Assembly (NCBI GenBank): GCA_963833905.1
Contig: CAWHZQ010000013.1
Location: 13,902-77,901, forward strand
Direction: 5' to 3'
Source: an uncultured Gemmatimonadales bacterium
GTDB lineage: Bacteria > Gemmatimonadota > Gemmatimonadetes > Gemmatimonadales > GWC2-71-9
Length of the DNA: 64,000 nucleotides
In this document: in pieces, positions 2,855 to 27,878 of the stretch
Layout: the number at the start of each line of letters is the position of its first letter
Position numbering within the stretch: the stretch's first letter is position 1
Position numbers and translations under genes: made by a program
The notes under the pieces: generated by a model
Seen by the model: the letters and a program-made list of their open reading frames with translations, nothing else
Database searches by the model: none
Told to the model about the DNA's origin: nothing

Positions 2855-4700
<1,846 letters not shown>

Positions 4701-5230
4701 CAGCGGTGGTGGCCTCGAGCAGTTGCTGGCGCACCGTGTCTCGGCGGACCAGGCGGGCGATGCGACTCAGGATCTTGACGTGCAGGCCGGCCGACGCCTC
4801 CGGCCCCACGATGAGAAAAACCAGCCGCACCGGCTCCCCGTCGATGGCGTCGAACGGAACCGGGGCCGGCGTCACGCCGGCGACCATCGTCAGCTCGTGC
4901 ACCGCGGCGCACCGCCCGTGCGGAATGGCCACCCCGAAGCCGATGCCTGTGCTCTGCACCGATTCGCGTTCCAGCACGGCGGCGAGGACGTCGTCGTATT
5001 CAGCGTTCGCGAGATTCGCAAGTTTTCGTGTCAGCGCCGCGATGGCCGCGTGCCGATCGCCGACGCTGAGCGGAACCACCACCCGGTCCGGCGAGAGCAG
5101 CTCGGTCAGGAGCACGGCACAGCCTGGCGGTGCATGGGACAAACGTAACCGGCGGCGGAGGGGCGGGCAATGCGAGAACGCGGCGGGACGGGCCGCCCGG
5201 ATCGGGGCTATCCGATTAGATTCCAACACG

Positions 5231-6431: not shown

Positions 6432-9203
6432 CTACCCCGTCGCCCCGAACCCCGTCGCGATACAGTTGATCGACAACAACAGCGCCGACAGCAGCTCCTC
6501 CTGCGACTTGTCGCTGCCGCTGTCCCGGAACCGGCGCAGCAGCTCGATCTGCTGGCGGGAGATCTGATTCAGGATCGGCAGCCGGCGCGCGAGCTTCCGC
6601 CGGAACCTCGGGAACCGCTCGGCCAGCGCCGTTCCGCCGCTGATCCGCAGCACCGCCTCGACCGTCCGATGGTACTCCTCCTCGATCAGCGGGAAGACGG
6701 CCGCCCGCACCCGCTCCTCCGGCACCAGCGCCGCGTACTCCCGCGCCATCTCCAGATCGACGTACGACAGCGTCTTCTCGACCTCGTCCACGATGAGCCG
6801 GAAGAGGCGTGAGTCGTTGAACATCCGCTGAATGAGCGCGGAGCCGCGCTGGCCGCGCACCTGCAGGAAGGTCAGCACTCCGCTGCCGACTCCGAACCAG
6901 CCGGGCACGAAATGGCGGTTCTGTGACCAGGCGAACACCCACGGGATCGCGCGCAGGTCGCCGAGCGTGCGCGCGCCGAACCGCCGGGCCGGCCGGGAGC
7001 CGAGATTGAGGAAGGAAATCTCCTCGAGCGGGCTCGCCGTCTGGTAGTACGGCAGCAGGTCAGGGTGGTCGACGAGCTTCCGGTAGGCCGCCTGGGCCGC
7101 GCCCGAGAGCGCCTCCATCGCCTCGTCGAACTCGGCCGTCGGCACGAGCGCCTCCTCGCGCTCGGACTTGATCGTGTGCTCCACCACGCTCGCGGCCAGC
7201 AGCTCGATCTGGTACTGCGCCGTGCCTCGGTTGGCGTACTTGAACGAGACGACCTCGCCCTGCTCGGTGATCCGCATCCGCCCCTGGATCGAGCCGGCGG
7301 GCTGCGCCGCGATCGCGCGCCCGGTCGGCGCCCCGCCCCGGCTCACCGACCCGCCGCGCCCGTGGAAGAACGCGATCGGCACCCCCATCTCCTTCCCCAC
7401 CCGCGTGAGCTTGATCTGGGCCTTGTACAGCTCCCAGTTCGAGGTCAGGAAGCCGCCGTCCTTGTTCGAGTCCGAGTAGCCGATCATCACCTCCTGCACC
7501 CCGCCCTGCGCGCGCACGCTGCGCTTGACCAGGGGCACACTGAGGAGCTCCCGCATGATGGCCGGCGCGCGCTGGAGGTCCTCGATCGTCTCGAACAGCG
7601 GCACGATCGGGAGGGTGCAGCTCTCGATGCCCGCCGTGTCGCCGAACAGCCCGCCGATCTTGGCCAGCAGGTAGGCGCCCAGCACGTCGCTCTCGCTCTG
7701 CGTCATGCTGAGCACGAAGGCGCCGAAGGCCTCGCGGTCGATCTCCGCGCGCAGCCGGCGGACGAGCTGGAACATGCCGAACGTCTCCGCGAACTCCGCC
7801 GAGGGCTCGGGAGCGGGCGCGCCCGGAGTGAGCGGCCGGCCCAGCTCCGCCGCCAGCCAGGTTCGCCATGCCTCCGAGCCGGGCTCCGGAGCATCGCCGG
7901 TCCCGCCGCCGGTCCGCCACAGGTCGGCGAGCGCGGCGTTGAGCTTGGTGGTGTTCTCCCGGACGTCCAGCCGGACCGTGCTGAAGCGGAACGACTCGAC
8001 CTCCCGGCGCACCGGGCGGATCAGGGCGGTGGCCAGCTCGGGCCGTCCGTCCTCGATCAGCTCGTCCTCCATCAGCTTGAGGTCCGCGAGCAGCGCGTCG
8101 GCCGACGCATAGCCGGCGGGATCCGGCCGCGTGTCGCCGCGCTCGGTGTGCTCGATCATCAGCTGGATGCGGCGGAGCATGCAGGCGAGATACTGGCGGA
8201 ACACTTCGCCCGGATTGCGGGTGGCGATCTCCTCGGCCTGCCCCGTCGCCGCCAGCTCGCGATCGAGCGCCGTGCGGAAGCGATCGGAGATCGGGACGGC
8301 CTTCTCGGTGATGCTGAGCGCGCGGACCAGCTCGTCGATCCGGCGGCGGTAGCGGCGGAGCCCCGTCAACCGGTTCTCCAGCAGCGTGCCATGGGTGACG
8401 TCATTGGTGACGAAGGGATTGCCGTCCCGGTCGCCGCCGATCCAGGAGCCGAACTGGAAGAACGGCGGCACGACCCAGCGCTCGCCCGGATAGAACTGCG
8501 CCAGCACCCGCTCGACCTTGTCCAGCAGGTCGGGCACCGCCTCGAACAGGGTCTCGTTGAAGAAGTGCAGGCCCCAGAAGACCTCCTGGGGCACGGTCGG
8601 CTTCTGCAGGCGCAGCTCGCCCGTGAGCCAGAGGAGCTCGATCTCGTTCCGCAGTCCGTCGATCAGTCCCTGGCGCTCGCGCGGCGTCCAGCGGGGCGAC
8701 TCGAGGTCGACCAGCCGGCGGTAGATGCGCCGATGCTTCTCCAGCACCGTGACGCGCTTGGCTTCGGTGGGATGGGCGGTGATGACCGGCCGGACGCGGA
8801 GCTGCTCGAGCAGCGTCCGGATCTCGGCCGCGGGCACCTTGGCGGCCGCGGCGTCGGAGAACACCCGCGCGAACGTGCCTCGGAGGAGCTCGTAGCCGCG
8901 CTCGGCCTCGATCTGCCGCCGGCGGCGCATGGCGGCGTTCTGCTCCGCGATGCTGAGCAGCTGGAACCAGATCCCCTGCACCTGGAGCGTCCGGGCCAGC
9001 AGCTCGGCGCTCAGCTCGTGCGGGGCCCGCTCGCCGCGCAAGACCGGCTCGACCTCCGGCGCGCGCTTCCGCACCAGCGTGAGCATGAGCTCGCTCAGGA
9101 GCTCGAGCACCTCGTTGGCGTAGTGGGCCGCGCTGGCGGCCACGGGGTCCGGCGACTCGGGCAGCTCGGTGGCGGAGAACGGTTCCAGCGCCACCTGGCT
9201 CAC
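6432..9203 (-). CDS. ppc: phosphoenolpyruvate carboxylase
   Basis: Intact 923-aa ORF. VITAHPTEAKR, GYSDSNKDGG, FHGRGGSVSRGGAP, C-terminal ...GFGATG. The GTG start overlaps the upstream stop (GTGA). Confidence 0.95.
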   Translation of the reverse strand: MSQVALEPFSATELPESPDPVAASAAHYANEVLELLSELMLTLVRKRAPEVEPVLRGERAPHELSAELLARTLQVQGIWFQLLSIAEQNAAMRRRRQIEAERGYELLRGTFARVFSDAAAAKVPAAEIRTLLEQLRVRPVITAHPTEAKRVTVLEKHRRIYRRLVDLESPRWTPRERQGLIDGLRNEIELLWLTGELRLQKPTVPQEVFWGLHFFNETLFEAVPDLLDKVERVLAQFYPGERWVVPPFFQFGSWIGGDRDGNPFVTNDVTHGTLLENRLTGLRRYRRRIDELVRALSITEKAVPISDRFRTALDRELAATGQAEEIATRNPGEVFRQYLACMLRRIQLMIEHTERGDTRPDPAGYASADALLADLKLMEDELIEDGRPELATALIRPVRREVESFRFSTVRLDVRENTTKLNAALADLWRTGGGTGDAPEPGSEAWRTWLAAELGRPLTPGAPAPEPSAEFAETFGMFQLVRRLRAEIDREAFGAFVLSMTQSESDVLGAYLLAKIGGLFGDTAGIESCTLPIVPLFETIEDLQRAPAIMRELLSVPLVKRSVRAQGGVQEVMIGYSDSNKDGGFLTSNWELYKAQIKLTRVGKEMGVPIAFFHGRGGSVSRGGAPTGRAIAAQPAGSIQGRMRITEQGEVVSFKYANRGTAQYQIELLAASVVEHTIKSEREEALVPTAEFDEAMEALSGAAQAAYRKLVDHPDLLPYYQTASPLEEISFLNLGSRPARRFGARTLGDLRAIPWVFAWSQNRHFVPGWFGVGSGVLTFLQVRGQRGSALIQRMFNDSRLFRLIVDEVEKTLSYVDLEMAREYAALVPEERVRAAVFPLIEEEYHRTVEAVLRISGGTALAERFPRFRRKLARRLPILNQISRQQIELLRRFRDSGSDKSQEELLSALLLSINCIATGFGATG

Positions 9204-10175
9204 ACGACGCGATCCCGGAGCGGCTTTCCGCTGAAGAAGAGCTGAAGGTTCTCGAACGCGCGCAGGCCCATGGCCACGCGGGTCTCCTGCGTCGCGCTGC
9301 CGAGATGCGGGAGCAGGACGACGTTCTCCATCGCGAGCAGCGCCGGCGTCACCTGCGGCTCCTTCTCATACACGTCGAGCCCCGCGCCGGCGATGCGCCT
9401 GGCCTGGAGCGCCTCGACCAGCGCCGCCTCGTCCACCACGTCGCCACGGGCGCTGTTGATGAGGAACGCCTCCGGCCGCATCAGCGCCAGGCGCTCGCGG
9501 TTCATCAGGTGCCGGGTCTCGGGCGTGGCCGGACAGTGGAGCGAGACGAAATGCGCCTCCTGCAGCACCTCTTCGAGGCTGTTCCGCGGCTCCGCGCCCA
9601 GCGCCTTGGCCACGTCGGGCGCGGGCGGGAAAGGGATCGTGGAAGATCACTTTCATCCCGAACCCATGATGGGCCCGCTGCGCCACCGCCCGAGCGATCC
9701 GGCCCATGCCGATCAAGCCGAGCGTCTTGCCCGTGACGTGCGTGCCGAGCATGTGGGTGGGCCGCCAGCCGGTCCAGTGGCCGCCCCGGAGATGGCGCTC
9801 GCCCTCGCCGGTGCGGCGGGCCGTCATGAGCAGGAGCGTCACCGCGAGATCGGCCGTCGCGTCGGTGAGCACGTCCGGCGTGTTCGAGACGGCGATCCCG
9901 CGGGCCTTGGCGGCCTCGACGTCGATGTTGTTGAAGCCGACGCCGAAATTGGCCACCAGCTTCGCCCGGCGGGGCTCGGTGGCGAGCACCTCGTCGGTGA
10001 CCTTGTCGGTGACGGTGGTGAGGAGGGCATCCGCGCTTCGGAAGGCTTCCCTCAGGCCGTCCACCGTCAGCGGTCGGTCCTCCGGATTGAGGCGCGCGTC
10101 GAACTCGCGGGCGAGCGCCTGATGCACCGGCTCGGGGAGGCGGCGGGTCACCACCACGACCGGACGCGCGCTCAC
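9200..10175 (-). CDS. D-isomer-specific 2-hydroxyacid dehydrogenase (hydroxypyruvate/glyoxylate reductase-like), with an apparent frameshift near 9625
   Basis: The N-terminal part [16 protein letters not shown]...[20 protein letters not shown] (NAD-binding GxGxxG) lies in the frame of ORF 9366..11093. The C-terminal part lies in ORF 9200..9613 ([12 protein letters not shown]...LPHLGSAT). GTGA overlaps at both ends. Confidence 0.8.
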
Positions 10176-11083
10176 GTGCCGACCGTCACGCGCTTCGACA
10201 TGCCGCCCAGCACCCGCGCGGCGGTGCTGCCGAGATCGGCCGGGCTCGACACCACGGTGATCCCCGCGCCACGCATGATCTCGACCTTTTCGGCCGCGCT
10301 CTCGCCGAAGGCGCGGATGATCGCGCCCGCGTGACCCATCCGGCGGCCCTTGGGCGCCGTGAGCCCGGCCACGTAGCCGATGACCGGCTTCTTCATGTGC
10401 TCCTTGGCGTGCAGCGCGGCCTCGGCCTCCTGCGGACCGCCGATCTCGCCGATCATCATGACCGCCTCGGTCTCCGGATCCTCCTCGAAGCGCTGCAGGA
10501 TGTCCACGAAGGAGCTGCCGTTGATCGGGTCGCCGCCGATGCCGACGCTGGTCGTGATGCCGATGCCGAGCGCCTTCATCTGCGACGCCGCCTCGTAGCC
10601 CAGCGTTCCCGACCGGGTCACCAGTCCCACGGTGCCGCGCTGGTAGATGTGTCCCGGCATGATGCCGATCATGGCCTTGCCGGGGCTGATGACGCCGGCA
10701 CAGTTGGGGCCGATGACCGTGGAGCGCTTCTCCTTGGGGTACCGCCGGAGATAGCGCTTCACCGTGATCATGTCCTGCGCCGGGATGCCGTCCGTGATGG
10801 CGCAGATCAGCCGGATGCCCGCGTCCGCCGCCTCCATGATGGAGTCGGCGCAAAACGCCGCCGGGACGAAGATGACGGACGCCTCCGCCCCCGCGTGCTT
10901 CACCGCCTCCTTGACCGTGTTGAACACCGGCAGGTCGAGATGCTGCTTGCCGCCTTTGCCGGGAGTCACGCCGCCCACGAGGTTGGTTCCGTAGGCCCGC
11001 ATCTCCTTGCCGTGAAACGTGCCCTTGTCCCCGGTGAAGCCCTGGACGATGACGCGCGTCCGTTCGTCGATGAGGATGCTCAT
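10172..11083 (-). CDS. mtkB: CoA-ligase alpha subunit, SucD family. Context suggests malate--CoA ligase (malate thiokinase) small subunit; the alternative is succinyl-CoA synthetase alpha.
   Basis: [28 protein letters not shown]...GHAGAII (phospho-His loop). The start was set at an internal ATG by residue count. ATGA overlap with the upstream subunit. Confidence 0.6.
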
Positions 11084-12273
11084 GGCTTGCCATTCCCGGC
11101 CGTGCTGCCCGAGGCCTTGAGGACGGCCACGACCTTCTCGGCCGCCTCGGTGAGGGTATCCGCCGTGACGAGATCGAGCCCGCTCTCGCGCAGGATCCGC
11201 TTGCCCTCCTCGACGTTGGTGCCGGCCAGCCGCACCACCAGCGGGACCGTCGGCTTGAGCTCCTTGACGGCGTTCACCACACCCTGCGCCACCCAATCGC
11301 AGCGGTTGATGCCGGCGAAGATGTTGACCAGGATCGCCCTGACCTTCGGGTCGGCGAGGACGAGCCGGAAGGCGTTGCAGACCTTCTCGGGCGAGGCGCC
11401 GCCACCCACGTCGAGGAAGTTGGCCGGCGAGCTGCCGGCGTGCTGGATGAGATCCATCGTGCCCATCGCCAGCCCGGCGCCGTTCACGATGCAGCCGATC
11501 TCGCCGTCGAGCGCGACGTAGTTGATCCCGTACTCCGCCGCCTGCGACTCCCGCGGATCCTCCTCCGCGTAGTCCCGCAGCTCGCTCACGTTGGGGCGGC
11601 GGAAGAGCGCGTTGTCGTCGAAGGTCATCTTGCAGTCGAGCGCCAGGAGCTGGCCGTCGGTCGTGGCGACGAGCGGGTTGATCTCCACCATGGTGGCGTC
11701 GAGGTCGCGGAACGCACGATAGCAGCCGAGCAGCGTCGTCACGGCGCGGGTCACCTGGGCCGAGTCGAGCCCCAGCGCGAACGCGATCTCGCGCGCCTGA
11801 AAGGCGGTGAGCCCCACCGCGGGCTCGACGGTCGAGCGGATGATCGCTTCGGGGGACTTCTCCGAGATCTCCTCGATCTCCACGCCGCCCTGCGCGGAGG
11901 CGACGATCATCACGCGCTCGCTCTTCCGGTCGAGCACGAAGCCGAGATAGATCTCGCGCTCGATGGGAACCGCCGCCTCCACGTAGAGCCGGTGCACGGT
12001 CCGGCCTTCAGGGCCGGTCTGATGGGTGACGAGCCGCTTGCCCAGGAGGGCCTTGGACGCCGTCCGCACCTCGTCCTCGTTGGAGCAGAGCTTGATGCCG
12101 CCGGCCTTCCCGCGGGCGCCGGAGTGGATCTGCGCCTTCACGGCCCAGCGGACGCCGCCGATCTCGGAGGCGCGGTAGACGGCCTGCTCCGGGCTATACG
12201 CCACCCCGCCCCGCGGGATCGCGACGCCGAAGCCGGCGAGCAGCTCCTTGGCCTGGTATTCGTGGATGTCCAC
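11080..12273 (-). CDS. mtkA: CoA-ligase beta subunit, SucC family (ATP-grasp). Context suggests malate--CoA ligase large subunit; the alternative is succinyl-CoA synthetase beta.
   Basis: (V)[16 protein letters not shown]...[19 protein letters not shown]...[11 protein letters not shown]...[18 protein letters not shown] start at 12273, preceded by GGAGG. The longer ORF to 12372 reads through a repeat element. Confidence 0.6.
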
Positions 12274-12316
12274 GCTCGAGCCTCCGTCGATCAAATGTGA
12301 CCGTGATGCCGGCTCC

Positions 12317-12412
12317 GTCATCCCGAGCGCAGCGAGGGATCGCCTGCCAGCTCGAGTCACGTCGAGCGTCACTCGCTACGCCGATGCGATCCCTCGCTAC
12401 GCTCAGGATGAC
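12317..12412. repeat. Palindromic REP/MITE-like element (GTCATCCCGAGCG...CTCAGGATGAC family)
   Basis: The arms gtcatcccgagcgcagcgagggatc (12317-12341) and gatccctcgctacgctcaggatgac (12388-12412) are inverted complements. The element fills the only gap in the sga-to-ppc chain. The mcl stop codon lies inside the right arm. Confidence 0.7.
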
Positions 12413-13383
12413 ATGACGATCAGGCCCGAGCTCGACGGCCGCCGCGCCCTGCCGTCGATCGCCGCCGCCGTGTCCACTACGTTCTGCGCCATCCGCGCCG
12501 ACGCCGCATCGATCATCCGCCCGTCGAGCTGCGCCGCGCCGCGGCCCTCGCGCGCCGCGTCCTCCAGCGCCACGAGAATCCGCCTGGCACGGTCCACCTC
12601 CACCGGCGGCGGGGTGAACACCTCGTTGGCGAGCGCGATCTGCGACGGGTGGATGGCCCATTTGCCCTCGACCCCCAGCGCGGCCGCGCGCCTGGCCGCG
12701 AGCCGGTAGCCCTCCGGATCCTTGAAGTCGCCGAACGGCCCGTCGATCGGCCGGAGACCGTAGGCCCGGCATGCCACGATCATGCGCGAGAGCGCCGCGT
12801 GCCACTGGTCGCCCGGATAGTCGGGGTTGAGGCCGCCGATCACGACCGTGCGCGCCCGGCAGCTCGCCGCGTAGTCCGCGACGCCGAAGTGCATCGCCTC
12901 GAGGCGGCGGCTGGACTGCGCGATCGCCTCGACGTTCGCCATGCCGAGGGCCGTTTCGATCAACACGTCGATCCCGAGGCGGTGCGGGATGCCCTTGGCT
13001 TCCTCGATCTGGGAGACCATGGCGTCCACCATGTAGACGTCGGCGGGGACGCCCACCTTGGGAATCAGAATGGTATCCAGGCGGTGGCCGGCCTGCTCCA
13101 CCACGTCGACCACGTCCCGGTACATGTAATGGGTGTCGATGCCGTTGATGCGCACCGAGATCGTCTTCCCGCGGCCGCGCCAGTCGAGCTCCAGCAGCGC
13201 CTGGATGACGTTGGTCCGGGCCCGTTCCTTGTCGCCCGGCGCGACCGCGTCCTCGAGATCGAGGAAGATGTAGTCGGCCTCGCCGTCGAGCGCCTTCTGG
13301 AACATCCCCGGATTCGAGCCCGGCACCGCCAGCTCGCTGCGCTGCAGCCGCTGGCGGGCGGGCTCGAAGCGCGTGTGGCTCAT
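12403..13383 (-). CDS. mcl: malyl-CoA lyase-type enzyme (HpcH/HpaI aldolase / CitE family)
   Basis: 326 aa starting MSHTRFEPARQRLQRSELAVPGSNPGMF...DYIFLDLEDAVAP...LIETALGMANVEAI...GKWAIHPSQI. ATGA overlap with sga. Confidence 0.75.
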   Translation of the reverse strand: MSHTRFEPARQRLQRSELAVPGSNPGMFQKALDGEADYIFLDLEDAVAPGDKERARTNVIQALLELDWRGRGKTISVRINGIDTHYMYRDVVDVVEQAGHRLDTILIPKVGVPADVYMVDAMVSQIEEAKGIPHRLGIDVLIETALGMANVEAIAQSSRRLEAMHFGVADYAASCRARTVVIGGLNPDYPGDQWHAALSRMIVACRAYGLRPIDGPFGDFKDPEGYRLAARRAAALGVEGKWAIHPSQIALANEVFTPPPVEVDRARRILVALEDAAREGRGAAQLDGRMIDAASARMAQNVVDTAAAIDGRARRPSSSGLIVMSS

Positions 13384-14636
13384 CGAGCGGCGCCCGCGGT
13401 GGCCTTCTCCTTCGCGGCCGCCGGCTGGGCATCCGGCGCGCGAGGCGGCAGCTCCCGCGACTCGAGCGGCTTGGCCGTGCTCCGCCAGTATTCCTCCGCC
13501 GCGCCGACGCCGCTCCCCGGCGTGACCTTCACGCCCGCGTCCCGCATGGCCATCTCGGCGCCGGCGATGCCGCCGAGGAGCATGCACTCGTTGAGGTCGC
13601 CCAGGTGGCCGATGCGGAACAGCCGGCCCGCCATCCGCGCGAGCCCGGCGCCGAGCGCCAGGTTGTAGCGGCGGTAGGCGATGTCGATCACCTCGGCGGC
13701 GTTGATGCCCGCGGGCACCATGATGGCGCTGACCGTGTCCGAGTACCACTTGGGCTGCCGGGCGCAGAGCTCGAGGCCCCACGCCTTGACCGCCGCGCGG
13801 GTCCCCTCGGCGAGCCGGTGGTGCCGCGCGAGCACGTTCTCCAGCCCTTCCTCGAAGATCACGTTCAGCGATTCCCGGAGTCCGTACAGCAGCGGCAGCG
13901 ACGGCGTGTAGGGGAAGTAGCCGGTGGCATTGGCCTTCTTCATGTCGCCGAAGTCGAAGAACACACGCGGCAGCTTGGCCGAGTCGTAGAGTGCCGCGGC
14001 CTTCGGGCTCACCGCCACGATGCCCAGGCCGGCCGGCAGCATCAGCCCCTTCTGCGACCCGGTCACGGCGCAGTCGACGCCCCACTCGTCCATCCGGAAG
14101 TCGATGCTGCCGATCGAGCTCACCCCATCCACCATCAGGAGCGCGGGATGCCTGGTGTCGTTCAGCGCCTTCCGCATCCCGGCGACGTCGCTGGTGACGC
14201 CGGTGGCGGTCTCGTTGTGGGTGAAGAGCACCGCCTTGATCTCGTGCGCCTTGTCGGCCGCGAGCGCCTCCTGGTAGCGCTCGAGGGGAGCGCCCTCGCC
14301 CCACTCGGTGTCGAGCACGTCGACCCGGAGGCCCAGCCGCTGGGCCATGTCGATCCAGAGATGGCTGAACATGCCGAAGCGCGCCGCGAGGACCCGGTCG
14401 CCCGGGCTCAGGGTGTTGGAGAGCGAGGCCTCCCACGCGCCCGTGCCGCTCGCCGGAAAGATGTACGTCTGCCCCGTCGTGGTCTTGAAGATCTTCTTGA
14501 GGTCCTGCAGCACCGGGGTCGCGAGCTTCGGGAAATCGGACGACCGGTGATCCTCCATCGCAACGTGCATGGCGCGGAGGACACGGTCGGGCGTATTCGT
14601 GGGACCCGGGACGAAGAGGAAGTTGCGACCGGCCAT
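13380..14636 (-). CDS. sga: serine--glyoxylate / alanine--glyoxylate-type class V aminotransferase
   Basis: Intact 418-aa ORF: MAGRNFLFVPGPTNTPDRVLRAM...TGSQKGLMLPAGLG (PLP-Lys). Confidence 0.8.
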   Translation of the reverse strand: MAGRNFLFVPGPTNTPDRVLRAMHVAMEDHRSSDFPKLATPVLQDLKKIFKTTTGQTYIFPASGTGAWEASLSNTLSPGDRVLAARFGMFSHLWIDMAQRLGLRVDVLDTEWGEGAPLERYQEALAADKAHEIKAVLFTHNETATGVTSDVAGMRKALNDTRHPALLMVDGVSSIGSIDFRMDEWGVDCAVTGSQKGLMLPAGLGIVAVSPKAAALYDSAKLPRVFFDFGDMKKANATGYFPYTPSLPLLYGLRESLNVIFEEGLENVLARHHRLAEGTRAAVKAWGLELCARQPKWYSDTVSAIMVPAGINAAEVIDIAYRRYNLALGAGLARMAGRLFRIGHLGDLNECMLLGGIAGAEMAMRDAGVKVTPGSGVGAAEEYWRSTAKPLESRELPPRAPDAQPAAAKEKATAGAAR

Positions 14637-14771
14637 GCGCGCACCCTCGCGGCTGAAAGAAAGGACGGGGCGGAGACGAGACGCCTCCGCCAGATCTTGA
14701 CTACATTAGCAAGCGCCGCCGCCGGCGCCGCTCGCTGTATTTTTATGCATCCATACCCATGTATAGCACTT

Positions 14772-14787
14772 TGTGCTTTTTTTCACA
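14772..14787. promoter_or_regulatory. Candidate CRP/FNR-family operator TGTGC-N6-TCACA
   Basis: tgtgctttttttcaca lies in the AT-rich divergent intergenic region between sga and the glycerate kinase gene. It differs by one base from TGTGA-N6-TCACA. Confidence 0.3.
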
Positions 14788-14798
14788 AGGCTGAGATC

Positions 14799-16148
14799 TT
14801 GTCCCTCCCGACCGCCCATCCCCGAGCGACGACACCCGCCCGCGAGCTCCTCACGGAGCTGTATCGCGTTGCCACGGCGGCCGTTGACCCGGCCCCTGCC
14901 CTGGCGAGCCGGCTCGGCCGGCTGCGAGCGCGACCCCGGGCGGCGCCGCTGGATCCTGGCCCTGGGCAAAGCTGCCCTCCCGATGGCCCGGGCCGCGGTC
15001 GACGCGCTCGCGGGATGGGGAGACTCGCCGGCAGGCGGCGTCATCGTGGCGCCAGAGATCCAGCCGGCACCGCATCCCAGCCTCCCCGTGGTCGCCGGCG
15101 ACCATCCCGAGCCCGGCTCCGGCTCGATGGCGGCCGCGGAAGCCTTGGGCCGGGCCGCCGCCGCGGTCCCGCCGGAGGACGAGGTCTGGGTGCTGCTCTC
15201 GGGCGGCGCCTCGAGCCTGCTCGCCGCGCCCGTCGAGGGCGTGACGCCCCACGAGCTCACCGCGCTCTACCGCCTCCTGCTCGGCTCCGGTCTCGACATC
15301 ACCGCCATGAACCGCATCCGGAAGCGCTTCTCCCGCTGGGGCGCCGGCCGGTTGGCCCGGGCGCTGGCCCCCGCCAGGGTGCGGGTGTTCATCGTCTCCG
15401 ACGTCATCGGCGACGACCTGCCCTCGATCGGCTCCGGCCCCTGCGTCCCCGACGTCACCACCGCCGCCGAAGTCCGGCGGATGCTGGAGCGCGCGGGACT
15501 CTGGGATCGTATCCCCGCCGCCGCTCGGCGCGTCGTCACGGCGTCGGAGTCGGGAGAAACGGCGGAAACGCCAAAGCCGGGAGACGCGGCCTTCGCGCGG
15601 GTGACCCTCGAGCTGATCGCCAGTAACCGGTTGGCCCTCGAAGCTGCGGCCAAGCGCGCGGCAGAGTTGGGCCTCGCTCCCATCGTGGCGGAGGCGCCGC
15701 TCGCCGGGGAGGCGTCGGCGACCGGGGCGAGTGTAGCCGCTTCTATTCTACAAAATTGCGGCCAGTCGGAGATCCCGCAACCAGCGGCACCGAGCCGCTG
15801 CTACATCTGGGGCGGCGAGACGACCGTCACCCTGGGCGACGCGCCGCCGGGCCTCGGCGGCCGCTGTCAGGAGCTGGCCCTCGCGGCCGCCCGGGTGCTC
15901 GACGGCGCGCCCCGGGTATCGCGCTGCTCGCGGCCGGCACCGACGGCCGCGATGGACCGACCGACGCCGCCGGCGCGATCGTCGACGGCGGCACCTGGCG
16001 CGCGGCGGCCGCCGCGGGCCGGGATCCCGCGCGCGATCTGGCGGCGCATGATGCCTACCGGGCGCTCGATGCGGCGGGGGCGCTGCTCAAGGTGGGGCTG
16101 ACGGGGACGAATGTGATGGATGTGGTGATCGGGGTGTGCGCTCGATGA
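14799..16148 (+). CDS. glycerate kinase, MOFRL/DUF4147 family (glycerate 2-kinase / TtuD-like), with two apparent frameshifts (~14930, ~15912)
   Basis: Three frame pieces. First ARELLTELYRVATAAVDPAPAL. Then WILALGKAALPMA...VAGDHPEPG...LLSGGASSLL...FIVSDVIGDD...IWGGETTV. Then LLAAGTDGRDGPTDAAGAIVDG...VGLTGTNVMDV. The TTG start at 14799 is tentative. Confidence 0.75.
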
Positions 16149-16163: not shown

Positions 16164-16588
16164 TTACGGCCTGAGCGGCAGCCGCGGCCGCCAGTCGCTC
16201 CCGATCAGGACGCTCACATCCACCCGCCGGAGCGTGTCCGGCTGCACCACCACCCGCCCGACGCCGAGCGCCTCCGCCACGTCCCGCCCCTGCCCCGGAT
16301 CCCCCCGCCGTACGTAGATCCGCGTGCTGTCCGACGCCGGCCCCGTCCCGAAGAAGACGACGTCGAGCCCTTTTTGCCGGAGCGCGCGCGTCGCGATCCG
16401 GGCAAAGCCGGGCCGCCGCGTCCCGTTCAGCACTTCCACCCGGATCCGCCGCCCCGGCGACGGTATGGGATAGGCATGGCCGGCGACGTGCTCGCGCTCG
16501 GGGGGCAGCATCAGCGCCACCCCCCCGCGATCGCCACCGCGAGCGCGGCGATCAGGGCGAGCCGGAGGGCGCGACGAGGCTGTTCCAG
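16164..16588 (-). CDS. small membrane-anchored LytR_C (LytR/CpsA/Psr C-terminal) domain protein; frameshift in a C7/G7 run at 16520-16526
   Basis: The C-terminal part RRIRVEVLNGTRRPGFARIATRALRQKGLDVVFFGTG...VSVLIGSDW lies in ORF 16164..16877. The TM segment RRALRLALIAALAVAIAGG lies in the frame of ORF 16511..16714. One base more or less in the homopolymer joins them. The start is uncertain (CTG 16588 or CTG 16555). Confidence 0.5.
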
Positions 16589-17109
16589 AAACGCACCGTT
16601 GGGTCGATGAGCGGCCGTCCCGACTCGACGAGATGCGCCACCCGGTCGCCAGCCACCGTGAGAAGGACGCCGGCGGCATCGTCGGGAAACCGGTCGGCCT
16701 GCGCGGCCCGCCACTCGCGCCTGAACGCGCGGCCCGGCTCGAGGTAGTCCGCGCAGTACAGCACCCGCCCGACCATGTCCCAGTCGGCCCAGCCCACCGA
16801 ATGGTAGCGCACGGCGTCGAGAATCCCCCGGTCGGTCTCACCCTCGGCCGCCGCCCGCGCCGCGCTGGCTGGGCCATGCCGAAGCGATCCCGGCCACGGC
16901 GCGTCCCCCGCCCAGCGGTCGAGCGTGGCAGGAGCCGCGTCGCGGAACGCGTCGTGCAGCCACGCGGCCCGCACCCACCGCGCGCGCTCGGCCGCCGAGA
17001 TGCGCATCCGTTCCGCCCAGCCGTCGGCCAGCGCCGCCACTCGCTCGATGTGCGCCGCCCGCTCGGGCGACACCTCCGCCCACGAGGGCAGCCCGCTCTG
17101 CGCGCTCAC
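16552..17109 (-). CDS. HD-superfamily hydrolase (YqeK-like)
   Basis: C-terminal 185 aa of ORF 16552..17619: ERAAHIERVAALADGWA...AAWLHDAFRD...VRYHSVG...YCADYLEPGR. The GTG start overlaps the panC stop (GTGA). Confidence 0.65.
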   Translation of the reverse strand: MSAQSGLPSWAEVSPERAAHIERVAALADGWAERMRISAAERARWVRAAWLHDAFRDAAPATLDRWAGDAPWPGSLRHGPASAARAAAEGETDRGILDAVRYHSVGWADWDMVGRVLYCADYLEPGRAFRREWRAAQADRFPDDAAGVLLTVAGDRVAHLVESGRPLIDPTVRFWNSLVAPSGSP

Positions 17110-17963
17110 CCGTCGAGGCCCTGGCCGAGAATGATGTTGTCGATCAGCCGCGTCCGTCCGAGCCGGGCGGCCAGCGCGACCACCGTATCGGCGCCGACCG
17201 TCTCCACCGGCGCGAGTGTCGCAGGCTCCACGATGGCGACGTACTCCACCTCCACCGTGGGCTCGGTCGCGAGGACGCCGCGCACAGTGCCCAGCAGCAC
17301 CGCCGCGCTCCGCTCGCCCGACCGGAACGCTTCGTGCGCGGCGCGGAGCGCGGCACTCAGGACCACCGCCCGCGGCCGGTGGTCGGCGTCCAGATAGGCG
17401 TTCCGGCTGCTGAGCGCGAGCCCGTCGGGCTCCCGCGCCGTCGGCACGACGACGATCTCCAGCCGCCAGTCCAGGTCGCGCACCATCTGCCGCACCAGCG
17501 TCGCCTGCTGGATGTCCTTCCTCCCGAAGCACGCCACGTCGGGCTCGACCAGATGAAAGAGCTTCGCGACGACCGTCAACACGCCTTCGAAGTGGCCGGG
17601 CCGAGCCGCGCCCTCCCACCGGTCCGCGGTCGCGCCGGGCACCACGCGGATCTCCGACCCGGGCGGGTACATGACCGCAACGGTCGGCACGAACAGCGCG
17701 TCGGTGCCGCGGGCCGCGGCGAGGGCGCGGTCGCGCGGCAGGTCGCGGGGGTAGCGCTCGAGGTCCTCGGCGGGCCCGAACTGCAGCGGGTTGACGAAGA
17801 TGCTCATGATGACCCGGTCGGCATGCCGGCGGGCCTCGTCGACCAGTCGGAGGTGTCCCTCGTGGAGGAAGCCCATGGTGGGCACGAGGGCAATGCGGCG
17901 GCCCGCCGCACGCTCGTCGCGCACCCAGCGGCGCAGGTCGCCAATGGAGCTGAGCTCGATCAT
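17106..17963 (-). CDS. panC: pantoate--beta-alanine ligase
   Basis: MIELSS...LVPTMGFLHEGHLRLV...IFVNPLQFGP...GHFEGVLTVV...FGRKDIQQ. The start was set by residue count inside ORF 17106..18311. Confidence 0.9.
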   Translation of the reverse strand: MIELSSIGDLRRWVRDERAAGRRIALVPTMGFLHEGHLRLVDEARRHADRVIMSIFVNPLQFGPAEDLERYPRDLPRDRALAAARGTDALFVPTVAVMYPPGSEIRVVPGATADRWEGAARPGHFEGVLTVVAKLFHLVEPDVACFGRKDIQQATLVRQMVRDLDWRLEIVVVPTAREPDGLALSSRNAYLDADHRPRAVVLSAALRAAHEAFRSGERSAAVLLGTVRGVLATEPTVEVEYVAIVEPATLAPVETVGADTVVALAARLGRTRLIDNIILGQGLDG

Positions 17964-17982
17964 GGACTCGGAGGCAGGAGAA

Positions 17983-18795
17983 TCAGTCGAAGCTGTGCTC
18001 TGGCCCGGGGTAGGTGCCATCCCGCACCTCGGCGGCGTAGGACCGGACGGCGACGCGCACCGCCTCGCCCAGCTCGGCGTAGCGCTTGAGGAACTTGGGA
18101 TTGAACATCTCGTTGAGGCCGAGCATGTCGTGCAGCACCAGCACCTGCCCGTCGCAGCCCGCCCCGGCGCCGATCCCGATCGTGGGAATCGTGAGCGCGG
18201 CGGTGATCCGCTTGGCGAGCGCCGACGGCAGCAGCTCGAGGACGATGCCGCAGGCCCCGGCCTCCTCGAGCGCCGCGGCATCGGCCAGCAGCCGCTCGGC
18301 CGTCGCGGCATCTCTTCCCTGCACCCGGTAGCCGCCGAGCGCGTGCACGGACTGCGGGGTGAGGCCGAGATGGCCGATCACGGGAATCCCACGGTCCACG
18401 AGCGCCCGGACCGTCTCCGCCATCGGCCGGCCGCCCTCGAGCTTCACGCCGTGCGCGCCGCTCTCCTGCAGCACGCGGCCGGCGTTCCGGATCGCTTCGG
18501 TGGGCGACACCTGGTAGGTGAGGAACGGCAGATCCACGAAGACCAGCGCGCGCCGCGCGCCGCGGCGGACGGAGGCGGCATGGTAGATCATCTGGTCCAG
18601 CGTGGCGCTGAGGGTCGTCTCCTGGCCCGCCAGCACCTGGTTGACCGAGTCGCCGACCAGCAGGACGTCGACCTCCGCCTGCTCCAGCAGCCGCGCGAAC
18701 GCGGCGTCGTAGCAGGTGAGCATCACGATCCGGCGCCCCGCCGCCTTCATCGCGAGCAGATCGGGCACCGTCATCGGCCGTGCGTCAGCGTTCAT
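17983..18795 (-). CDS. panB: 3-methyl-2-oxobutanoate hydroxymethyltransferase
   Basis: Intact 270-aa ORF: IVMLTCYDAAFARL...LLVGDSVNQV...GVKLEGG...VIGHLGLTPQS. Confidence 0.92.
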   Translation of the reverse strand: MNADARPMTVPDLLAMKAAGRRIVMLTCYDAAFARLLEQAEVDVLLVGDSVNQVLAGQETTLSATLDQMIYHAASVRRGARRALVFVDLPFLTYQVSPTEAIRNAGRVLQESGAHGVKLEGGRPMAETVRALVDRGIPVIGHLGLTPQSVHALGGYRVQGRDAATAERLLADAAALEEAGACGIVLELLPSALAKRITAALTIPTIGIGAGAGCDGQVLVLHDMLGLNEMFNPKFLKRYAELGEAVRVAVRSYAAEVRDGTYPGPEHSFD

Positions 18796-19208
18796 GGGCT
18801 TGCAGCTCCGCCAGCTCTCGCAGCCAGAAGTCGCGGTTGGGCAGCTCGGGATGGGGAATGATAAGGTCGGGCTCCGTCACGCGCCGCTGCCCGTATCGCA
18901 CGATGTCCACATCGAGGGTCCGGGGACCCCACCGCTCGCCCCGGACGCGGCCCCGCGCGCGCTCGATCTCGTGGCAGGCCTCGAGCAGCTCGCGCGGCGT
19001 GAGCCGCGTCTCGAGCAGGACCATCTGGTTGAGGTACGGCGGCTGCGTGCATGCCGGCGAGCGGCGCCGTCTCCTCGACGGCCGACGCGGCGACGACCTC
19101 GGTATCCGGGAGCTTCGCCAGCGCCTCGCGGGCGGCGGCGAGGTGTCCGGCCCGGTCGCCGAGGTTGCTGCCGAGCGCCACGTACGCGCGTTCGGCGGCG
19201 GCGACCAT
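18785..19208 (-). CDS. folK: 2-amino-4-hydroxy-6-hydroxymethyldihydropteridine diphosphokinase (HPPK), with an apparent frameshift near 19035
   Basis: The N-terminus MVAAAERAYVALGSNLGDR lies in the frame of ORF 18792..20651. The C-terminus lies in ORF 18785..19024 (GPRTLDVDIV...IIPHPELPNRDFW). Confidence 0.8.
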
Positions 19209-19210
19209 CG

Positions 19211-21291
19211 TCAGGTCTCCACCACGAAGTGCCTGGCGATCCGCTGGAGGTCGGCGGCCACGTCGCCCAGCTCGCGGATGGACCGCTCGAGGTCGGCCTG
19301 TCCGCCGGCGGCCTCGGCCGCGTGCCGCGCGAGGGCCTCGGTCTCGCTCAGCGTGCGCGCCGAGCTGGCGGCGACCTGCCGGATCTGCCCGGTGAGCCCG
19401 TCGACCGCCCGGAGCTGGTCCGCGGCCGTGGCGGCGATGGCCCGCGCGTGCTGCCCGGCCTCTCCCGTCGTGCCGACGATGGCGTCGAGCGCCATCGCGG
19501 CGTCCGCGCTCAGCTCCTCCACGCCCGCCACGGCCTGCCGTCCGCGCTCCATCTGCCCGCTCACCGCCGACACCTGGTCGGTGATCTCCTCGAGGAGGTG
19601 CCGCGCCTCGCCCGCCGCGTGCAGGCTCTGGGCGGCGAGATCCCGCACCTCGTCGGCCACCACCGCGAACCCGCGCCCCTCGGCGCCCGCGCGCGCGGCC
19701 TCGATGGCCGCGTTGAGGGCGATCAGGTTCGTCAGGTCGGCGATTTCGCGAATCGTCCCGATGAACCCCTGGATCCGGGTGGTCATCGCGCCGAGTCCGG
19801 CGACCTGGTCGGCGCTGGCGGACACGAAGCTCTTGAGCCCGACGAGCCGGTCGATCGCTTCGCCGATGACCACGCGGTTCTGCGCCGCCACCTCGGCGGC
19901 CGTGCCGCTCGCCGCGGCGGCCTGCGAGCCCTGGTCCGCCATGGCGCGGGTGGCGGTGCCGAGCGAATCGGTGGCCTCGAGGCCGCCGGCGACGAAGGTC
20001 TCCAGCTCGCTCGCGCCCTGCCGCATCCCCTGCGACGCGTCGGCCAGCGCAGCGCCGAGGTGCGGAGCGAATCGGTGACGCGGGCCAACGCGGTGACCTG
20101 CTGCCCGATCTGCTCGACGGTGCCGAGCAGAGGCCGGCGCAGCTCGGCGATGTGGATCGCCGTCGCGATCTGGTTACCCAGCGTGTTGAGGGCGACGAGG
20201 TCCTTGGGTCCGTACGCATGCCGCTTGGGGTGGTCCACCTCGACCGTCCCGAGCAGGTCGCCGCCGAAACGGATCGGGTGGACCACGAGGCTCCCGACCT
20301 GATCCATCGGGGAGGCGACGCGCGGATCGGACCGGGCGTCCTTGACCACGACACCTGGTTCGACGCGATCGCCTCTGCGCGGAATGGCGCGGCGCCGCTG
20401 GGCGGCTCGCCGCGGCCGGGGCGCCCGAGCGCGCCGCGATAGGCCAGCGTCGCGACGCCGTCGACGACGCGATAGATCCGGAAGTCACCCCAGTCGAGCA
20501 GCCGGTACGCCAGCCGCTCGATCTGGTCGAACGAGCCCTGCAGCGTGCGGTTGCTGGCGATCGCCACCTCCATCAGGTGGACCTTGTTCAGGTCCTCGGC
20601 GCCGATCGCCTCCTCCAGGATGCGACGCGTGAGGACGCCGAGCACGCCCATGGCCAGCGCCGACCGCCAGCCAGCCGACCGGCGAGAGCGAGCGCAGCGC
20701 GGCGACCGCCACGACCGCCGCGATGAGGGTCAGCAGGTAGGAAATGATCTCCCAGCGGAGGATCAGGACCTTTTCGGCGTGCTCGAGCTTGTCGCGGATG
20801 AGCAGCGTGAAGTAGAACAGCGCTCGCGACGCGAAGAAGTACATGAAGACGAGGATGGCGGCGGCCGGCAGCAGGTCGAGGGACAGCTCGGGGTGCCCCA
20901 CGAACACCAGCACGGCGGCGTAGTACCCGTAGGCCACCGCGAAGCCAAGCACCTCGCGGCCGGCGTTGATGAGCCCGGCGCGCGGGAACTTCCGGAGCCA
21001 GAGCACGTCCGAAGCGAAGACGCCGGTCCACAGGGCCAGCACCACCGGCGACGGACCCACGGTCGCCGCACCCACGAGCGCCGCCACACCGGTCTGCGTC
21101 AGGTAGGAGTACTTGCTCAGGCGCACCGGTACCGCGCGGAGCAGAACCACCACCGCGATCAGGGCCAGCGTGGTCACCGGCTGGTCGGTCCAGCGCGTGT
21201 CCGCCGCGAGCGCGGCGAGCGTGAAGAGCACGCCTCCCACCGACAGCCCCTGCGCGTACCGGTCCACCATGAGCTGGATGCGGTCTTTCAT
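19211..21291 (-). CDS. multi-pass membrane domain - GAF - methyl-accepting chemotaxis signalling domain protein, with ~3 apparent frameshifts (~20040, ~20350, ~20650)
   Basis: Four frame pieces. (1) [14 protein letters not shown] plus about 6-7 hydrophobic helices. (2) [20 protein letters not shown]...FRIYRVVDG. (3) [10 protein letters not shown]...[17 protein letters not shown] (GAF). (4) The MA domain with [40 protein letters not shown]. The ATG overlaps the trpA stop (ATGA). No HAMP domain is evident. Confidence 0.7.
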
Positions 21292-22083
21292 CGAGCCACC
21301 GTCCGCGCGTCGAGCGCCTCGCGCAGCGCCCCGCAGGAATTCCCCCGCCGCGGCCACGCCTCTGGTGCCGAGGATGTCGACGAGCGCGCTGCCGACGACC
21401 ACGCCGTCGGCCTGGCCGGCCACCGTGCGTGCCTGTGCCGGCGTGGAGATCCCGAATCCGACGGCCACCGGCAGCGGCGTCGCCCGCCGGACCTGGGCGA
21501 TCGACTCCGCCAGCCCTTCCGCGAGGGAGGCGGTCGCGCCCGTCACCCCGAGGCGGGCGACGAGATACACGAAACCCTGCGCGCCCTCGACCGAGGCCGC
21601 GAGCCGCGCGGGACGGGTCGTCGGGGCGATGAGTCGAATCAGATCGAGCGGGCTCGTCCGGATGGCCGACTCCACGCCGGCATCGCTGCCCGCCGGGAGG
21701 TCGGTCAGCAGCACGCCCGCCACGCCCAGCGCGTCGGCGTCGCGGAGGAAGCGGTCGAGGCCGTAGCGCAGGATCGGATTGAGGTAGCTGAAGACGACGA
21801 TCGGCCGGGCGAGTCTCGCGCGCTCGATCAGCGCCAGCGTGCCGGCGAGCGTCATCCCCTGGCGGAGGGCGTCGAAGGTGGAGCGTTGAATGGTCGGACC
21901 GTCGGCCAGCGGATCGCTGAACGGGACGCCGACCTCGATGATGTCGGCCACCTCGTCGGCCATGCGCAGCGCGGCCAGGCTCGCCTCGGCGGACGGATAC
22001 CCGGCGGTGAGATATGGGATCAGCGCGGTCCGCTCCTGGGCCCGGAGGGCGGCCCAGGCCGGTGCGAGCCTGGACTCAGACAA
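21288..22083 (-). CDS. trpA: tryptophan synthase alpha chain, with an apparent frameshift near 21340
   Basis: ALIPYLTAGYP...IEVGVPFSDPLADGPTIQ...GFVYLVARLGVTG...VGFGIS. Shifting one base near the 3' end gives [12 protein letters not shown] followed by TGA. In the raw sequence the ORF runs on into the next gene. TTG start at 22083. Confidence 0.85.
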
Positions 22084-25227: not shown

Positions 25228-26404
<1,177 letters not shown>

Positions 26405-26427
<23 letters not shown>

Positions 26428-27847: not shown

Positions 27848-27878
27848 CTTGTCCTTCGGCCGGTCTTCGGGTATTCTA

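Follow-up and report, generated by a model that had tools for sequence, protein, structure and literature searches.

The window (the whole 64-kb stretch of DNA analysed here) comes from an uncultured soil bacterium of the Gemmatimonadales, in agreement with the original prediction that the genome was not proteobacterial. It carries six genes that follow one another on the minus strand and a seventh transcribed divergently from the first of them. The features of the locus are as follows.

13380..14636, minus strand: sga, serine--glyoxylate aminotransferase, 418 aa, at the head of the operon
12403..13383, minus strand: mcl, malyl-CoA lyase, 326 aa, its ATG overlapping the sga stop (ATGA)
12317..12412, no strand assigned: REP-like palindromic element forming a long hairpin in the mcl-mtkA spacer
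11080..12273, minus strand: mtkA, malate--CoA ligase (malate thiokinase) beta subunit, 397 aa, GTG start with GGAGG upstream
10172..11083, minus strand: mtkB, putative malate--CoA ligase alpha subunit, 303 aa, ATGA overlap with mtkA
9200..10175, minus strand: hprA-like D-2-hydroxyacid dehydrogenase, GyaR/GhrB type, raw frame broken at 9636
6432..9203, minus strand: ppc, phosphoenolpyruvate carboxylase, 923 aa, its GTG overlapping the hprA stop (GTGA)
14799..16148, plus strand: gck, MOFRL-family glycerate 2-kinase, divergent from sga, raw frame broken twice
14760..14788, minus strand: conserved motif TTGTGA-N17-TATACA, preceded by TG, in the divergent control region
14669..14691, minus strand: GC-rich hairpin with a T-rich run behind it, some 30 nt before the ATG in the 5' leader of sga

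Direct reading of the sequence demonstrated an operon architecture, with 4-nt start/stop overlaps at four junctions (ATGA at sga/mcl and mtkA/mtkB, GTGA at mtkB/hprA and hprA/ppc). All seven genes were found where the original prediction had placed them, joined by the overlaps it had described, and the one repeat-filled gap it had seen in the chain is the mcl-mtkA spacer (12274-12402), which contains a 27-nt inverted repeat with two arms that are 93% complementary. The six genes (sga-mcl and mtkA-mtkB-hprA-ppc) make up one translationally coupled unit, of which the REP-like hairpin is the sole, dispensable interruption, and gck is transcribed divergently from a control region of 162 nt common with sga.

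Enzyme families encoded by the cluster

The best PDB match of the aminotransferase is a serine--glyoxylate aminotransferase (6PK1, 479 bits), and the protein is 64-71% identical to the sga products of Methylocapsa, Paraburkholderia, Methyloversatilis and Hyphomicrobium clusters. Its top NCBIfam match is the BhcA model (NF045640), on which it scores 620 bits against a cutoff of 650; the sga products of the Methylocapsa, Methyloversatilis and Hyphomicrobium clusters are also below the cutoff (590-599 bits). These comparisons support its assignment as a Sga that behaves on the BhcA model like the Sga of cultured methylotrophs, as expected from the serine/alanine--glyoxylate type first proposed for it. 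The lyase has as its nearest solved relatives the malyl-CoA/beta-methylmalyl-CoA lyase of M. extorquens (5UGR, 426 bits) and then 4L9Y (318 bits), with citrate lyase beta relatives at 113 bits or less. It also matched the RipC model and, at 168 bits against a cutoff of 443, the CitE model, and neither citD nor citF was found near mcl. Citrate lyase beta (CitE), the other grouping raised in the original prediction, was rejected on this sub-cutoff score and on the nearest structures, which are malyl-CoA lyases, and the malyl-CoA-lyase type originally proposed is retained.

Of the SucC/SucD-like pair, MtkA passes the cutoff of 604 bits on the NCBIfam equivalog NF010647, 'malate--CoA ligase subunit beta', with 695 bits. 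Its score on the SucC model is 142 bits lower (553 bits), and an identity as the TCA succinyl-CoA synthetase SucC was rejected on this comparison, which supports reading the pair as MtkAB. MtkB is covered from end to end by the SucD-family profile, SucD models being its only matches; we know of no MtkB-specific profile model. Its assignment follows from translational coupling to mtkA and from the mtkA-mtkB pairing kept in all 80 loci, which support it as a putative malate--CoA ligase alpha subunit.

PEP carboxylase was recognised at full length, as had been claimed (Pfam PEPcase, 22-919 of 919, 816 bits; NCBIfam PRK00009, 778 bits). Likewise, the call of a divergent MOFRL-family glycerate kinase was upheld once the frame had been corrected (see below), the 449-aa Gck covering DUF4147 (2-233 of 234) and MOFRL (2-106 of 106) and matching 1X3L (titled hypothetical protein) and 2B8N (titled putative glycerate kinase) in the PDB. 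The corrected HprA-like protein of 324 aa fully covers both Pfam 2-Hacid_dh domains, so that the D-2-hydroxyacid reductase class of the original prediction stands, whereas its kinship with the HprA of Methylobacterium/Methylocapsa-type clusters does not, given 32% identity to the HprA of the Methylocapsa aurea cluster. The best PDB matches of the reductase are the GyaR glyoxylate reductases 5AOV and 2DBQ, followed by the D-glycerate dehydrogenase 1GDH, which we take to be the serine-pathway enzyme of Hyphomicrobium methylovorum, and it falls below all NCBIfam cutoffs, those of the GyaR and GhrB models included. As judged by these matches, it is a putative hydroxypyruvate/glyoxylate reductase of the GyaR/GhrB type and not orthologous to Methylocapsa-type HprA. 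At the level of profile and structure comparisons, the family of each enzyme was thus established, and the serine-cycle set originally claimed (sga, mtkAB, ppc, mclA, gck) holds, with hprA as a putative hydroxypyruvate reductase and the enzymes' substrate specificities predicted.

Conservation and control elements

The order with gck divergent from sga-mcl-mtkA-mtkB-hprA-ppc recurs, whole or cut by contig ends, in loci L001-L011, L026 and L041, and the six-gene chain is kept without gck in L012 and L018. The same gene order and housekeeping neighbourhood are found in many Gemmatimonadota MAGs, the housekeeping flanks of L003, L005 and L006 being the same around the cluster over about 22 kb. 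Furthermore, in neighbour-joining trees calculated without support values, the Gemmatimonadota sequences of MtkA, of Mcl and of Sga group as a single clade each. These gene orders and trees argue for conservation and vertical inheritance of the cluster within Gemmatimonadota.

The mcl-mtkA spacer hairpin has a predicted fold of -88.7 kcal/mol (z = -7.75). Variants of it lie in the same spacer of L001 and L005, and it is absent from L002, L003, L006, L007, L009, L010 and L012. A third copy of the repeat motif was seen at 28567-28591 of the window. In the control region, the motif TTGTGA-N17-TATACA, which includes the palindrome TGTGA-N6-GCACA, is kept in the window and in L001, L002, L003, L005, L006 and L007, and occurs once in the window against 0.07 occurrences expected by chance. 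It was not called by a strict sigma-70 scan and reads as a candidate sigma-70 extended -10 promoter facing sga. Gemmatimonadota loci share the sga-leader hairpin in position but not in sequence; RNAalifold predicted seven pairs, of which four show changes in both partners, and no Rfam family matched.

Proposed pathway and its alternatives

The serine-cycle set of carbon-assimilation genes is complete and conserved, and we consider that the region is probably the serine-cycle core operon of this bacterium. In the proposed cycle, Sga would transfer the amino group of serine to glyoxylate, yielding hydroxypyruvate and glycine, the GyaR/GhrB-type reductase would convert hydroxypyruvate to D-glycerate, Gck would convert glycerate to 2-phosphoglycerate, and enolase (its gene elsewhere) would form PEP. 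Carboxylation of PEP by Ppc would give oxaloacetate, from which malate dehydrogenase (its gene also elsewhere) would produce malate and MtkAB malyl-CoA; Mcl would then release acetyl-CoA and glyoxylate, the latter returning to Sga. C1 units would enter where methylene-H4F and glycine give serine, one possible supply being the oxidation of methanol by XoxF that has been published for other soil Gemmatimonadetes.

A Pfam survey of the 64-kb window found no glyA, mtdA, fch or ftfL and no methanol or methylamine dehydrogenase, in line with what had been said of the H4F C1-transfer genes and dehydrogenases. Genes for H4MPT, the ethylmalonyl-CoA pathway or isocitrate lyase were likewise not found, and L012 and L018, more distant Gemmatimonadales loci whose flanks differ, carry none of these C1/glyoxylate genes in those flanks. 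Because the window is free of C1-oxidation and H4F genes, methylotrophy, with C1 carbon as the flux entering the cycle, is something we infer rather than read directly from the locus.

The same absence, both in the window and beside the cluster in the Gemmatimonadota loci examined, would fit an operon that is not methylotrophic and runs as a loop for glyoxylate, glycolate or C2 assimilation, an alternative that the original prediction had rightly put beside methylotrophy. Sga would then aminate glyoxylate to glycine, hydroxypyruvate would pass via glycerate to 2-phosphoglycerate, and Mcl and MtkAB would either work toward malate as an ATP-conserving substitute for malate synthase or split malate for glyoxylate, with C1 units coming solely from internal glycine/serine metabolism or methylated osmolytes. 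The reductase, nearest to glyoxylate reductases, agrees with such a loop, as does the presence of the same enzyme set in loci of Ruegeria, Sulfitobacter and Roseovarius, roseobacters that to our knowledge are not methanol utilisers. We nevertheless regard it as unlikely, given that one conserved operon unites ppc, mtkAB and mcl with sga, hprA and gck, which is the signature of a complete cycle rather than of assimilating glyoxylate only, and that Gemmatimonadetes MAGs carry the serine pathway together with XoxF, H4MPT and PQQ genes, methanol dehydrogenase being abundant in the soil proteome (PMC5103831).

The broken frames of two genes had been overlooked in the original prediction: its positions for the reductase (10175..9200) and the kinase (14799..16148) stand, and their raw frames are not intact. 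The raw hprA span of 976 nt is not divisible by three and changes frame near 9636, where there is one extra base. The frame of gck changes twice, with an extra base at 14924/14925 and a missing base after 15912, and tblastn returned three collinear segments in frames 3, 1 and 3. Set against the window, the contigs of four soil metagenomes, each from a different study, show precisely the indels that restore these frames, at 9636, 14924/5 and 15912, base 9636 being missing from all four. The same four metagenomes carry frame-restoring indels at 4391 (aspS) and 5434/5 (rlmN), and at least 12 further indels of the same kind lie within 16201-36200. Besides aspS and rlmN, single-base indels in the window break an MCP-like gene (three times), purL and purC, and every indel checked is corrected in the locus copies of these independent metagenomes. 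The corrected HprA and Gck, with fully covered Pfam domains, are the window sequence with the three single-base differences of these contigs applied.

Since the soil metagenomes lack the indels and similar ones occur in aspS and other essential genes, we conclude that the three frameshifts are single-base assembly errors and not gene decay, and that the genes are intact in natural populations. Indeed, GC3 remains high through the shifted segments and relatives have unbroken versions of the same genes, which makes it very improbable that the one frameshift in hprA and the two in gck mark true pseudogenes of a decaying cluster and a pathway that is non-functional in this organism. Soil metatranscriptome contigs partly cover all seven genes at 95% identity or more, which we grade as weak evidence of transcription, these being assembled contigs with possible DNA carry-over.

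Finally, we give almost no credence to a misassignment of the genes, with a TCA succinyl-CoA synthetase for the CoA ligase, a CitE-type citrate/citramalyl-CoA enzyme for the lyase or BhcA for the aminotransferase, as the SucD-only matches of MtkB, the top rank of BhcA and the RipC and CitE matches of Mcl are set against the better, cutoff-passing malate--CoA ligase score of MtkA, the far higher score of Mcl with the M. extorquens enzyme than with citrate lyase proteins, a sub-cutoff BhcA score typical of true Sga and the missing bhc-type domain families described below.

Comparison with known systems

The beta-hydroxyaspartate cycle (BhcABCD) resembles the locus through its BhcA, to which the aminotransferase is closely homologous, but differs in that the window protein stays below the NF045640 cutoff and its gene is coupled to mcl and not to bhc genes. 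The domain families that we expect of bhcB, bhcC and bhcD were not found in the 64-kb window by the Pfam survey, and membership of that cycle was rejected on the score and on this result.

The Methylobacterium/Methylocapsa-type arrangement, represented by Methylocapsa aurea KYG (L064), has the same seven predicted enzyme functions, with a MOFRL-type glycerate kinase in both, and identities to the window of 70% for MtkA, 72% for MtkB, 69% for Sga, 65% for Mcl, 62% for Ppc and 38% for Gck. Its order differs, with ftfL-hprA-sga-gck divergent from mtkA-mtkB-ppc-mcl, whereas the window has the single chain sga-mcl-mtkAB-hprA-ppc and, unlike the ftfL-bearing L064, lacks ftfL, mtdA and fch both within and next to the cluster. 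The reductases, 32% identical, belong to different subfamilies, PRK13243/GyaR-like in the window and PRK06487-like in L064, and the host phylum is Gemmatimonadota, unlike that of these methylotrophs.

The serine pathway in Gemmatimonadetes has been known since 2016, when XoxF, H4MPT and serine-pathway genes were described in soil members (Butterfield et al. 2016, PMC5103831). For Gemmatimonadetes, XoxF3 systems are likewise on record, and in the study concerned most XoxF-containing MAGs had the whole serine pathway (PMC10875860). In the literature searched, we found no description of the operon architecture, the reductase type or the conserved synteny; those reports concern the presence of the pathway.

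A gene order identical to that of the window, sga-mcl-mtkA-mtkB-hprA(-ppc), is seen in proteobacterial clusters of Aminobacter aganoensis (L024), Mesorhizobium sp. Root157 (L029), Hyphomicrobium MAGs (L074, L076) and Gammaproteobacteria MAGs (L014, L016, L031, L039, L050, L057, L071). These clusters also have a GyaR-like reductase, 57-68% identical to that of the window, with 67-79% identity for Mcl and 67-73% for MtkA, but they differ in having no divergent gck at the sga end, and the Gemmatimonadota sequences form a clade of their own apart from them.

Enzymes and gene order of the cluster

The listed ORFs, a frame plot of G+C by codon position and the profile matches placed seven genes at exactly the positions of the original prediction, whose annotation of the locus also stands; what it had not noticed is that two of the genes are broken by frameshifts.

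Genes of the cluster (position, strand, product)
6432-9203, minus, full-length PEP carboxylase (ppc)
9200-10175, minus, D-2-hydroxyacid dehydrogenase (hprA), an interval of 976 nt
10172-11083, minus, SucD-like gene (mtkB)
11080-12273, minus, SucC-like gene (mtkA)
12403-13383, minus, HpcH/CitE-like lyase (mcl)
13380-14636, minus, class-V aminotransferase (sga)
14799-16148, plus, DUF4147 and MOFRL glycerate kinase (gck)

The six minus-strand genes are translationally coupled, as indicated by the ATGA overlaps at sga/mcl and mtkA/mtkB and the GTGA overlaps at mtkB/hprA and hprA/ppc, the exception being a 129-nt spacer between mcl and mtkA. Together the seven enzymes represent the serine-cycle-specific steps, and just the shared GlyA, enolase and malate dehydrogenase are missing.

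The CoA-ligase pair is not a canonical succinyl-CoA synthetase, since MtkA scored 695 bits on the NCBI equivalog for the malate--CoA ligase subunit beta (cutoff 604) versus 553 bits on the SucC model. MtkB matched SucD models only, because no specific model exists for the alpha subunit; its gene overlaps mtkA, and the two are paired in all 80 of the 80 related loci. The assignment of the CitE-like protein to the malyl-CoA-lyase type was likewise borne out, its best solved relatives being the M. extorquens malyl-CoA lyase 5UGR (426 bits) and then 4L9Y (318 bits), compared with at most 113 bits for citrate-lyase-type proteins; an exact-protein look-up of Mcl returned no record. For Sga, the best solved relative is the serine--glyoxylate aminotransferase 6PK1 (479 bits), and the top NCBIfam match is BhcA, the aminotransferase of the beta-hydroxyaspartate cycle (620 bits, under the cutoff of 650). 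A true Sga gives such a sub-cutoff score: on this model, values of 590-599 came from the sga products of the serine-cycle clusters in Methylocapsa aurea, Methyloversatilis and Hyphomicrobium, and we therefore discarded the BhcA identity. A Pfam survey of the window gave no sign of bhcB, bhcC or bhcD.

The putative hydroxypyruvate reductase is the one non-canonical part of the cluster. Its nearest solved relatives are the archaeal GyaR glyoxylate reductases 5AOV, 6BII and 2DBQ (257-270 bits), followed by the D-glycerate dehydrogenase 1GDH (225 bits), the serine-pathway enzyme of Hyphomicrobium methylovorum. It is PRK13243/GhrB-like, with scores under the cutoffs of those models. As judged from sequence, its class fits hydroxypyruvate reduction, with hydroxypyruvate the presumed substrate preference.

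Frameshifts and the quality of the source assembly

The reading frame of hprA shifts near 9636, and that of gck shifts twice, near 14924 and near 15912. Comparison with syntenic relatives revealed like breaks in aspS (~4390), rlmN (~5435) and, three times, an MCP-like gene, and from Pfam coordinates purL, purC, trpF and folK are also broken. We aligned to the window contigs assembled from four soil metagenomes, each from a separate study, whose runs contain ~57-63% of the region's sampled 31-letter words. Each of the four metagenomes showed a single-base difference from the window at 4391, 5434/5, 9636, 14924/5 and 15912, and at least 12 more were found in 16201-36200, with the extra base in the window in nearly all of them. 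Inspection of the sequence contexts placed the indel sites outside long homopolymers, and in total the window departs from near-identical independent soil contigs by one single-base indel per ~1-2 kb.

Single-base indel positions in the window
4391, 5434/5, 6356, 9636, 14924/5, 15912, 16521, 19047, 20662
21334, 25248, 27256, 27708, 29257, 31610, 33350, 33518, 34244

A frameshift every 1-2 kb, including one in the aspartyl-tRNA synthetase gene, would be inviable, and the breaks therefore represent consensus errors of the source assembly; we rejected pseudogenes, as the frameshifts strike essential genes too and four independent metagenomes lack them. Insertion errors appear to be systematic in the source assembly. 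With the three corrections within the cluster, the reductase comes to 324 aa and the kinase to 449 aa, and their Pfam domains are then covered end to end. The corrected gck runs from a TTG start at 14799 to a stop at 16148, and its product matches 1X3L and also 2B8N, an entry titled putative glycerate kinase.

Three further frames in the window deserve mention. A 943-aa frame at 23530-26361 (minus strand) has HEAT repeats (residues 753-832) following a TrpB-like PALP domain (residues 38-361); the soil contigs are one base shorter at 25248, corresponding to about residue 371, just past the PALP domain, and an insertion error has probably fused two genes artificially here. At 30444-34019 (plus strand), a stop-free frame of 1191 aa spans an HtrA-like trypsin protease and adenylosuccinate lyase, with indels relative to the soil contigs at 31610, 33350 and 33518 and a shift of the purC frame between ~33950 and 34060; it looks like a product of high G+C and indel errors rather than a real fusion. 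The MCP-like gene at 19214-21276 (minus strand) lies in four frame segments in the window and is an unbroken gene of ~700 aa in L003 and L005, two syntenic Gemmatimonadota loci.

Non-coding elements

Two copies of the motif GTCATCCTGAGCGTAGCGAGGGATC in inverted orientation fill the mcl-mtkA spacer and form a hairpin of ~96 nt at 12317-12412 (-88.7 kcal/mol, z = -7.75). The element is a REP-like palindromic repeat of the form GTCATCCTGAGCG(N)AGCGA(R)GGATC, a third copy of which lies at 28567-28591. Variants occur in the mcl-mtkA spacers of L005 and a further related locus, L001; the spacers of other relatives are short and unstructured. As a REP-like insertion the hairpin is variable, and it is tolerated at the sole non-overlapping junction and dispensable for the operon.

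The sga-gck control region measures 162 nt and contains one motif that is kept in the six closest relatives.

Other non-coding features (position, strand, description)
14669-14691, minus, GC-rich leader hairpin tailed by a T-rich run, ~30 nt ahead of the sga ATG and shared by most Gemmatimonadota loci
14760-14788, minus, promoter-like motif TTGTGA, 17 nt, then TG-n-TATACA, ending 10 nt from the gck start codon
50438-50805, minus, full-length tmRNA (Rfam RF00023, 136 bits)

The motif at 14760-14788 would act as a sigma-70 promoter of the extended -10 type for sga. Neither the control region nor the stretch downstream of ppc gave a promoter call in strict scans for sigma-70 sites and terminators; TTGTGA-N17-TATACA was passed over because the tool demands a T at position 6. 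The motif also contains the palindrome TGTGA-N6-GCACA, which we considered as a CRP/FNR-type operator and rejected: L001 and a second relative, L002, keep the -35 and the TG-extended -10 but not the right half of the palindrome, and we therefore prefer the promoter reading. The sequence of the leader hairpin varies between loci, with four of its seven pairs changed on both sides. Conserved promoter-like motif and hairpin together may constitute an unrecognised regulatory leader. Rfam at the gathering threshold found only the tmRNA in the whole window, and at a permissive threshold it gave nothing credible in the control region, with no known riboswitch or leader.

Conservation and putative role in C1 assimilation

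Searched against one genome per species of GTDB, MtkA found its best matches exclusively in Gemmatimonadota MAGs (68-85% identity), with proteobacterial proteins ranking next (at most 74%). The order gck<>sga-mcl-mtkA-mtkB-hprA-ppc is found, whole or clipped by contig ends, in the related loci L001-L011, L026 and L041, and the six-gene chain is kept without gck in L012 and L018, two more distant Gemmatimonadales loci with differing flanks. The flanks of L003, L005 and L006 show synteny to the window over ~22 kb, sharing phoH, aspS, PTS-IIA and rlmN on one side and a LytR_C protein, panC, panB, folK, MCP and trpA on the other. MtkA, Mcl and Sga of Gemmatimonadota each form one clade among proteobacterial clades in neighbour-joining trees without support values, and the cluster does not differ from its surroundings in G+C, which is 71% across the whole window. 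Since gene order, flanks, trees and G+C agree, these Gemmatimonadales have the operon as a conserved core feature inherited vertically, and it is neither a recent island nor a stray transfer.

The most likely function of the operon is to assimilate C1 units, from a putative source, through the serine cycle of a soil Gemmatimonadales bacterium; the main rival is a role in glyoxylate or C2 metabolism instead. The Pfam survey found no C1-oxidation, H4MPT, H4F, ethylmalonyl-CoA or glyoxylate-shunt genes in the 64-kb window, the rest of which is housekeeping (aspS, phoH, panBC, trp and pur genes, pyruvate phosphate dikinase, LexA, tmRNA). None of these genes lies beside the cluster in L012 and L018 either, where the flanks contain only Cpn10, a RecQ-like helicase, acyl-CoA dehydrogenase, prolyl oligopeptidase and RNase E/G. 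For the phylum, a link between the serine pathway and C1 modules has been published, with XoxF and H4MPT genes alongside it in soil Gemmatimonadetes (Butterfield et al. 2016, PMC5103831), and XoxF3 systems have been described in Gemmatimonadetes MAGs, with the entire serine pathway in most XoxF-containing MAGs of that study (PMC10875860). The pathway is not universal in Gemmatimonadota, as the MAG 'Ca. M. kingii' of a 2026 preprint lacks sga and hprA. Soil metatranscriptome contigs of at least 95% identity cover parts of all seven genes, with coverage similar to that of the housekeeping genes nearby, which weakly supports transcription of the cluster. The pyruvate phosphate dikinase (40974-43640, plus strand, 888 aa), located within a purine run (purQ, purL, purF, then purE, purK), could be a PEP source for Ppc.

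To our knowledge, no methylotroph has yet been cultured from Gemmatimonadota, a phylum abundant in soil. We tentatively propose, as a possibility we would not yet favour, that widespread soil Gemmatimonadales are true serine-cycle methylotrophs by way of this vertically inherited single operon, with a GyaR/GhrB-type reductase replacing the canonical HprA, and that module-based MAG surveys would tend to score hprA or gck as missing. If so, the reductase swap and indel-ridden long contigs would cause the cycle to be scored incomplete in such surveys. On a practical matter, searches for canonical hprA alone may miss the Gemmatimonadota gene, as the reductase lies outside the textbook HprA subfamily, and single-base assembly errors can make hprA and gck seem broken or absent in metagenome surveys.

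Our analysis provides a gene-by-gene picture of how Gemmatimonadota encode the serine cycle and leaves knowledge of the pathway itself unchanged. Some proteobacterial clusters adjoin C1-entry genes, such as serine hydroxymethyltransferase in L054 (5387-6676) and formate--tetrahydrofolate ligase in L064 (Methylocapsa aurea, 3203-4879), whereas none lie beside the cluster in the Gemmatimonadota loci examined. In Methylocapsa, Methyloversatilis and Paraburkholderia the genes follow the classical split arrangement, unlike the single chain of the window, and the gene adjoining sga in Methylocapsa aurea falls into another reductase subfamily (PRK06487-like, 32% identity to the window reductase). In contrast, Aminobacter, Mesorhizobium and several Gammaproteobacteria MAGs share both the identical gene order and the reductase type. 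Seven Gammaproteobacteria MAG loci (L014, L016, L031, L039, L050, L057 and L071) have the order sga-mcl-mtkA-mtkB-hprA-ppc with a GyaR-type reductase (61-68% identity), and surveys relying on canonical hprA only could score such genomes as lacking that step. The cluster is a well-resolved further example of known serine-cycle gene sets, departing from the textbook only in its single-operon order and GyaR-type reductase, both of which are found in Proteobacteria too.
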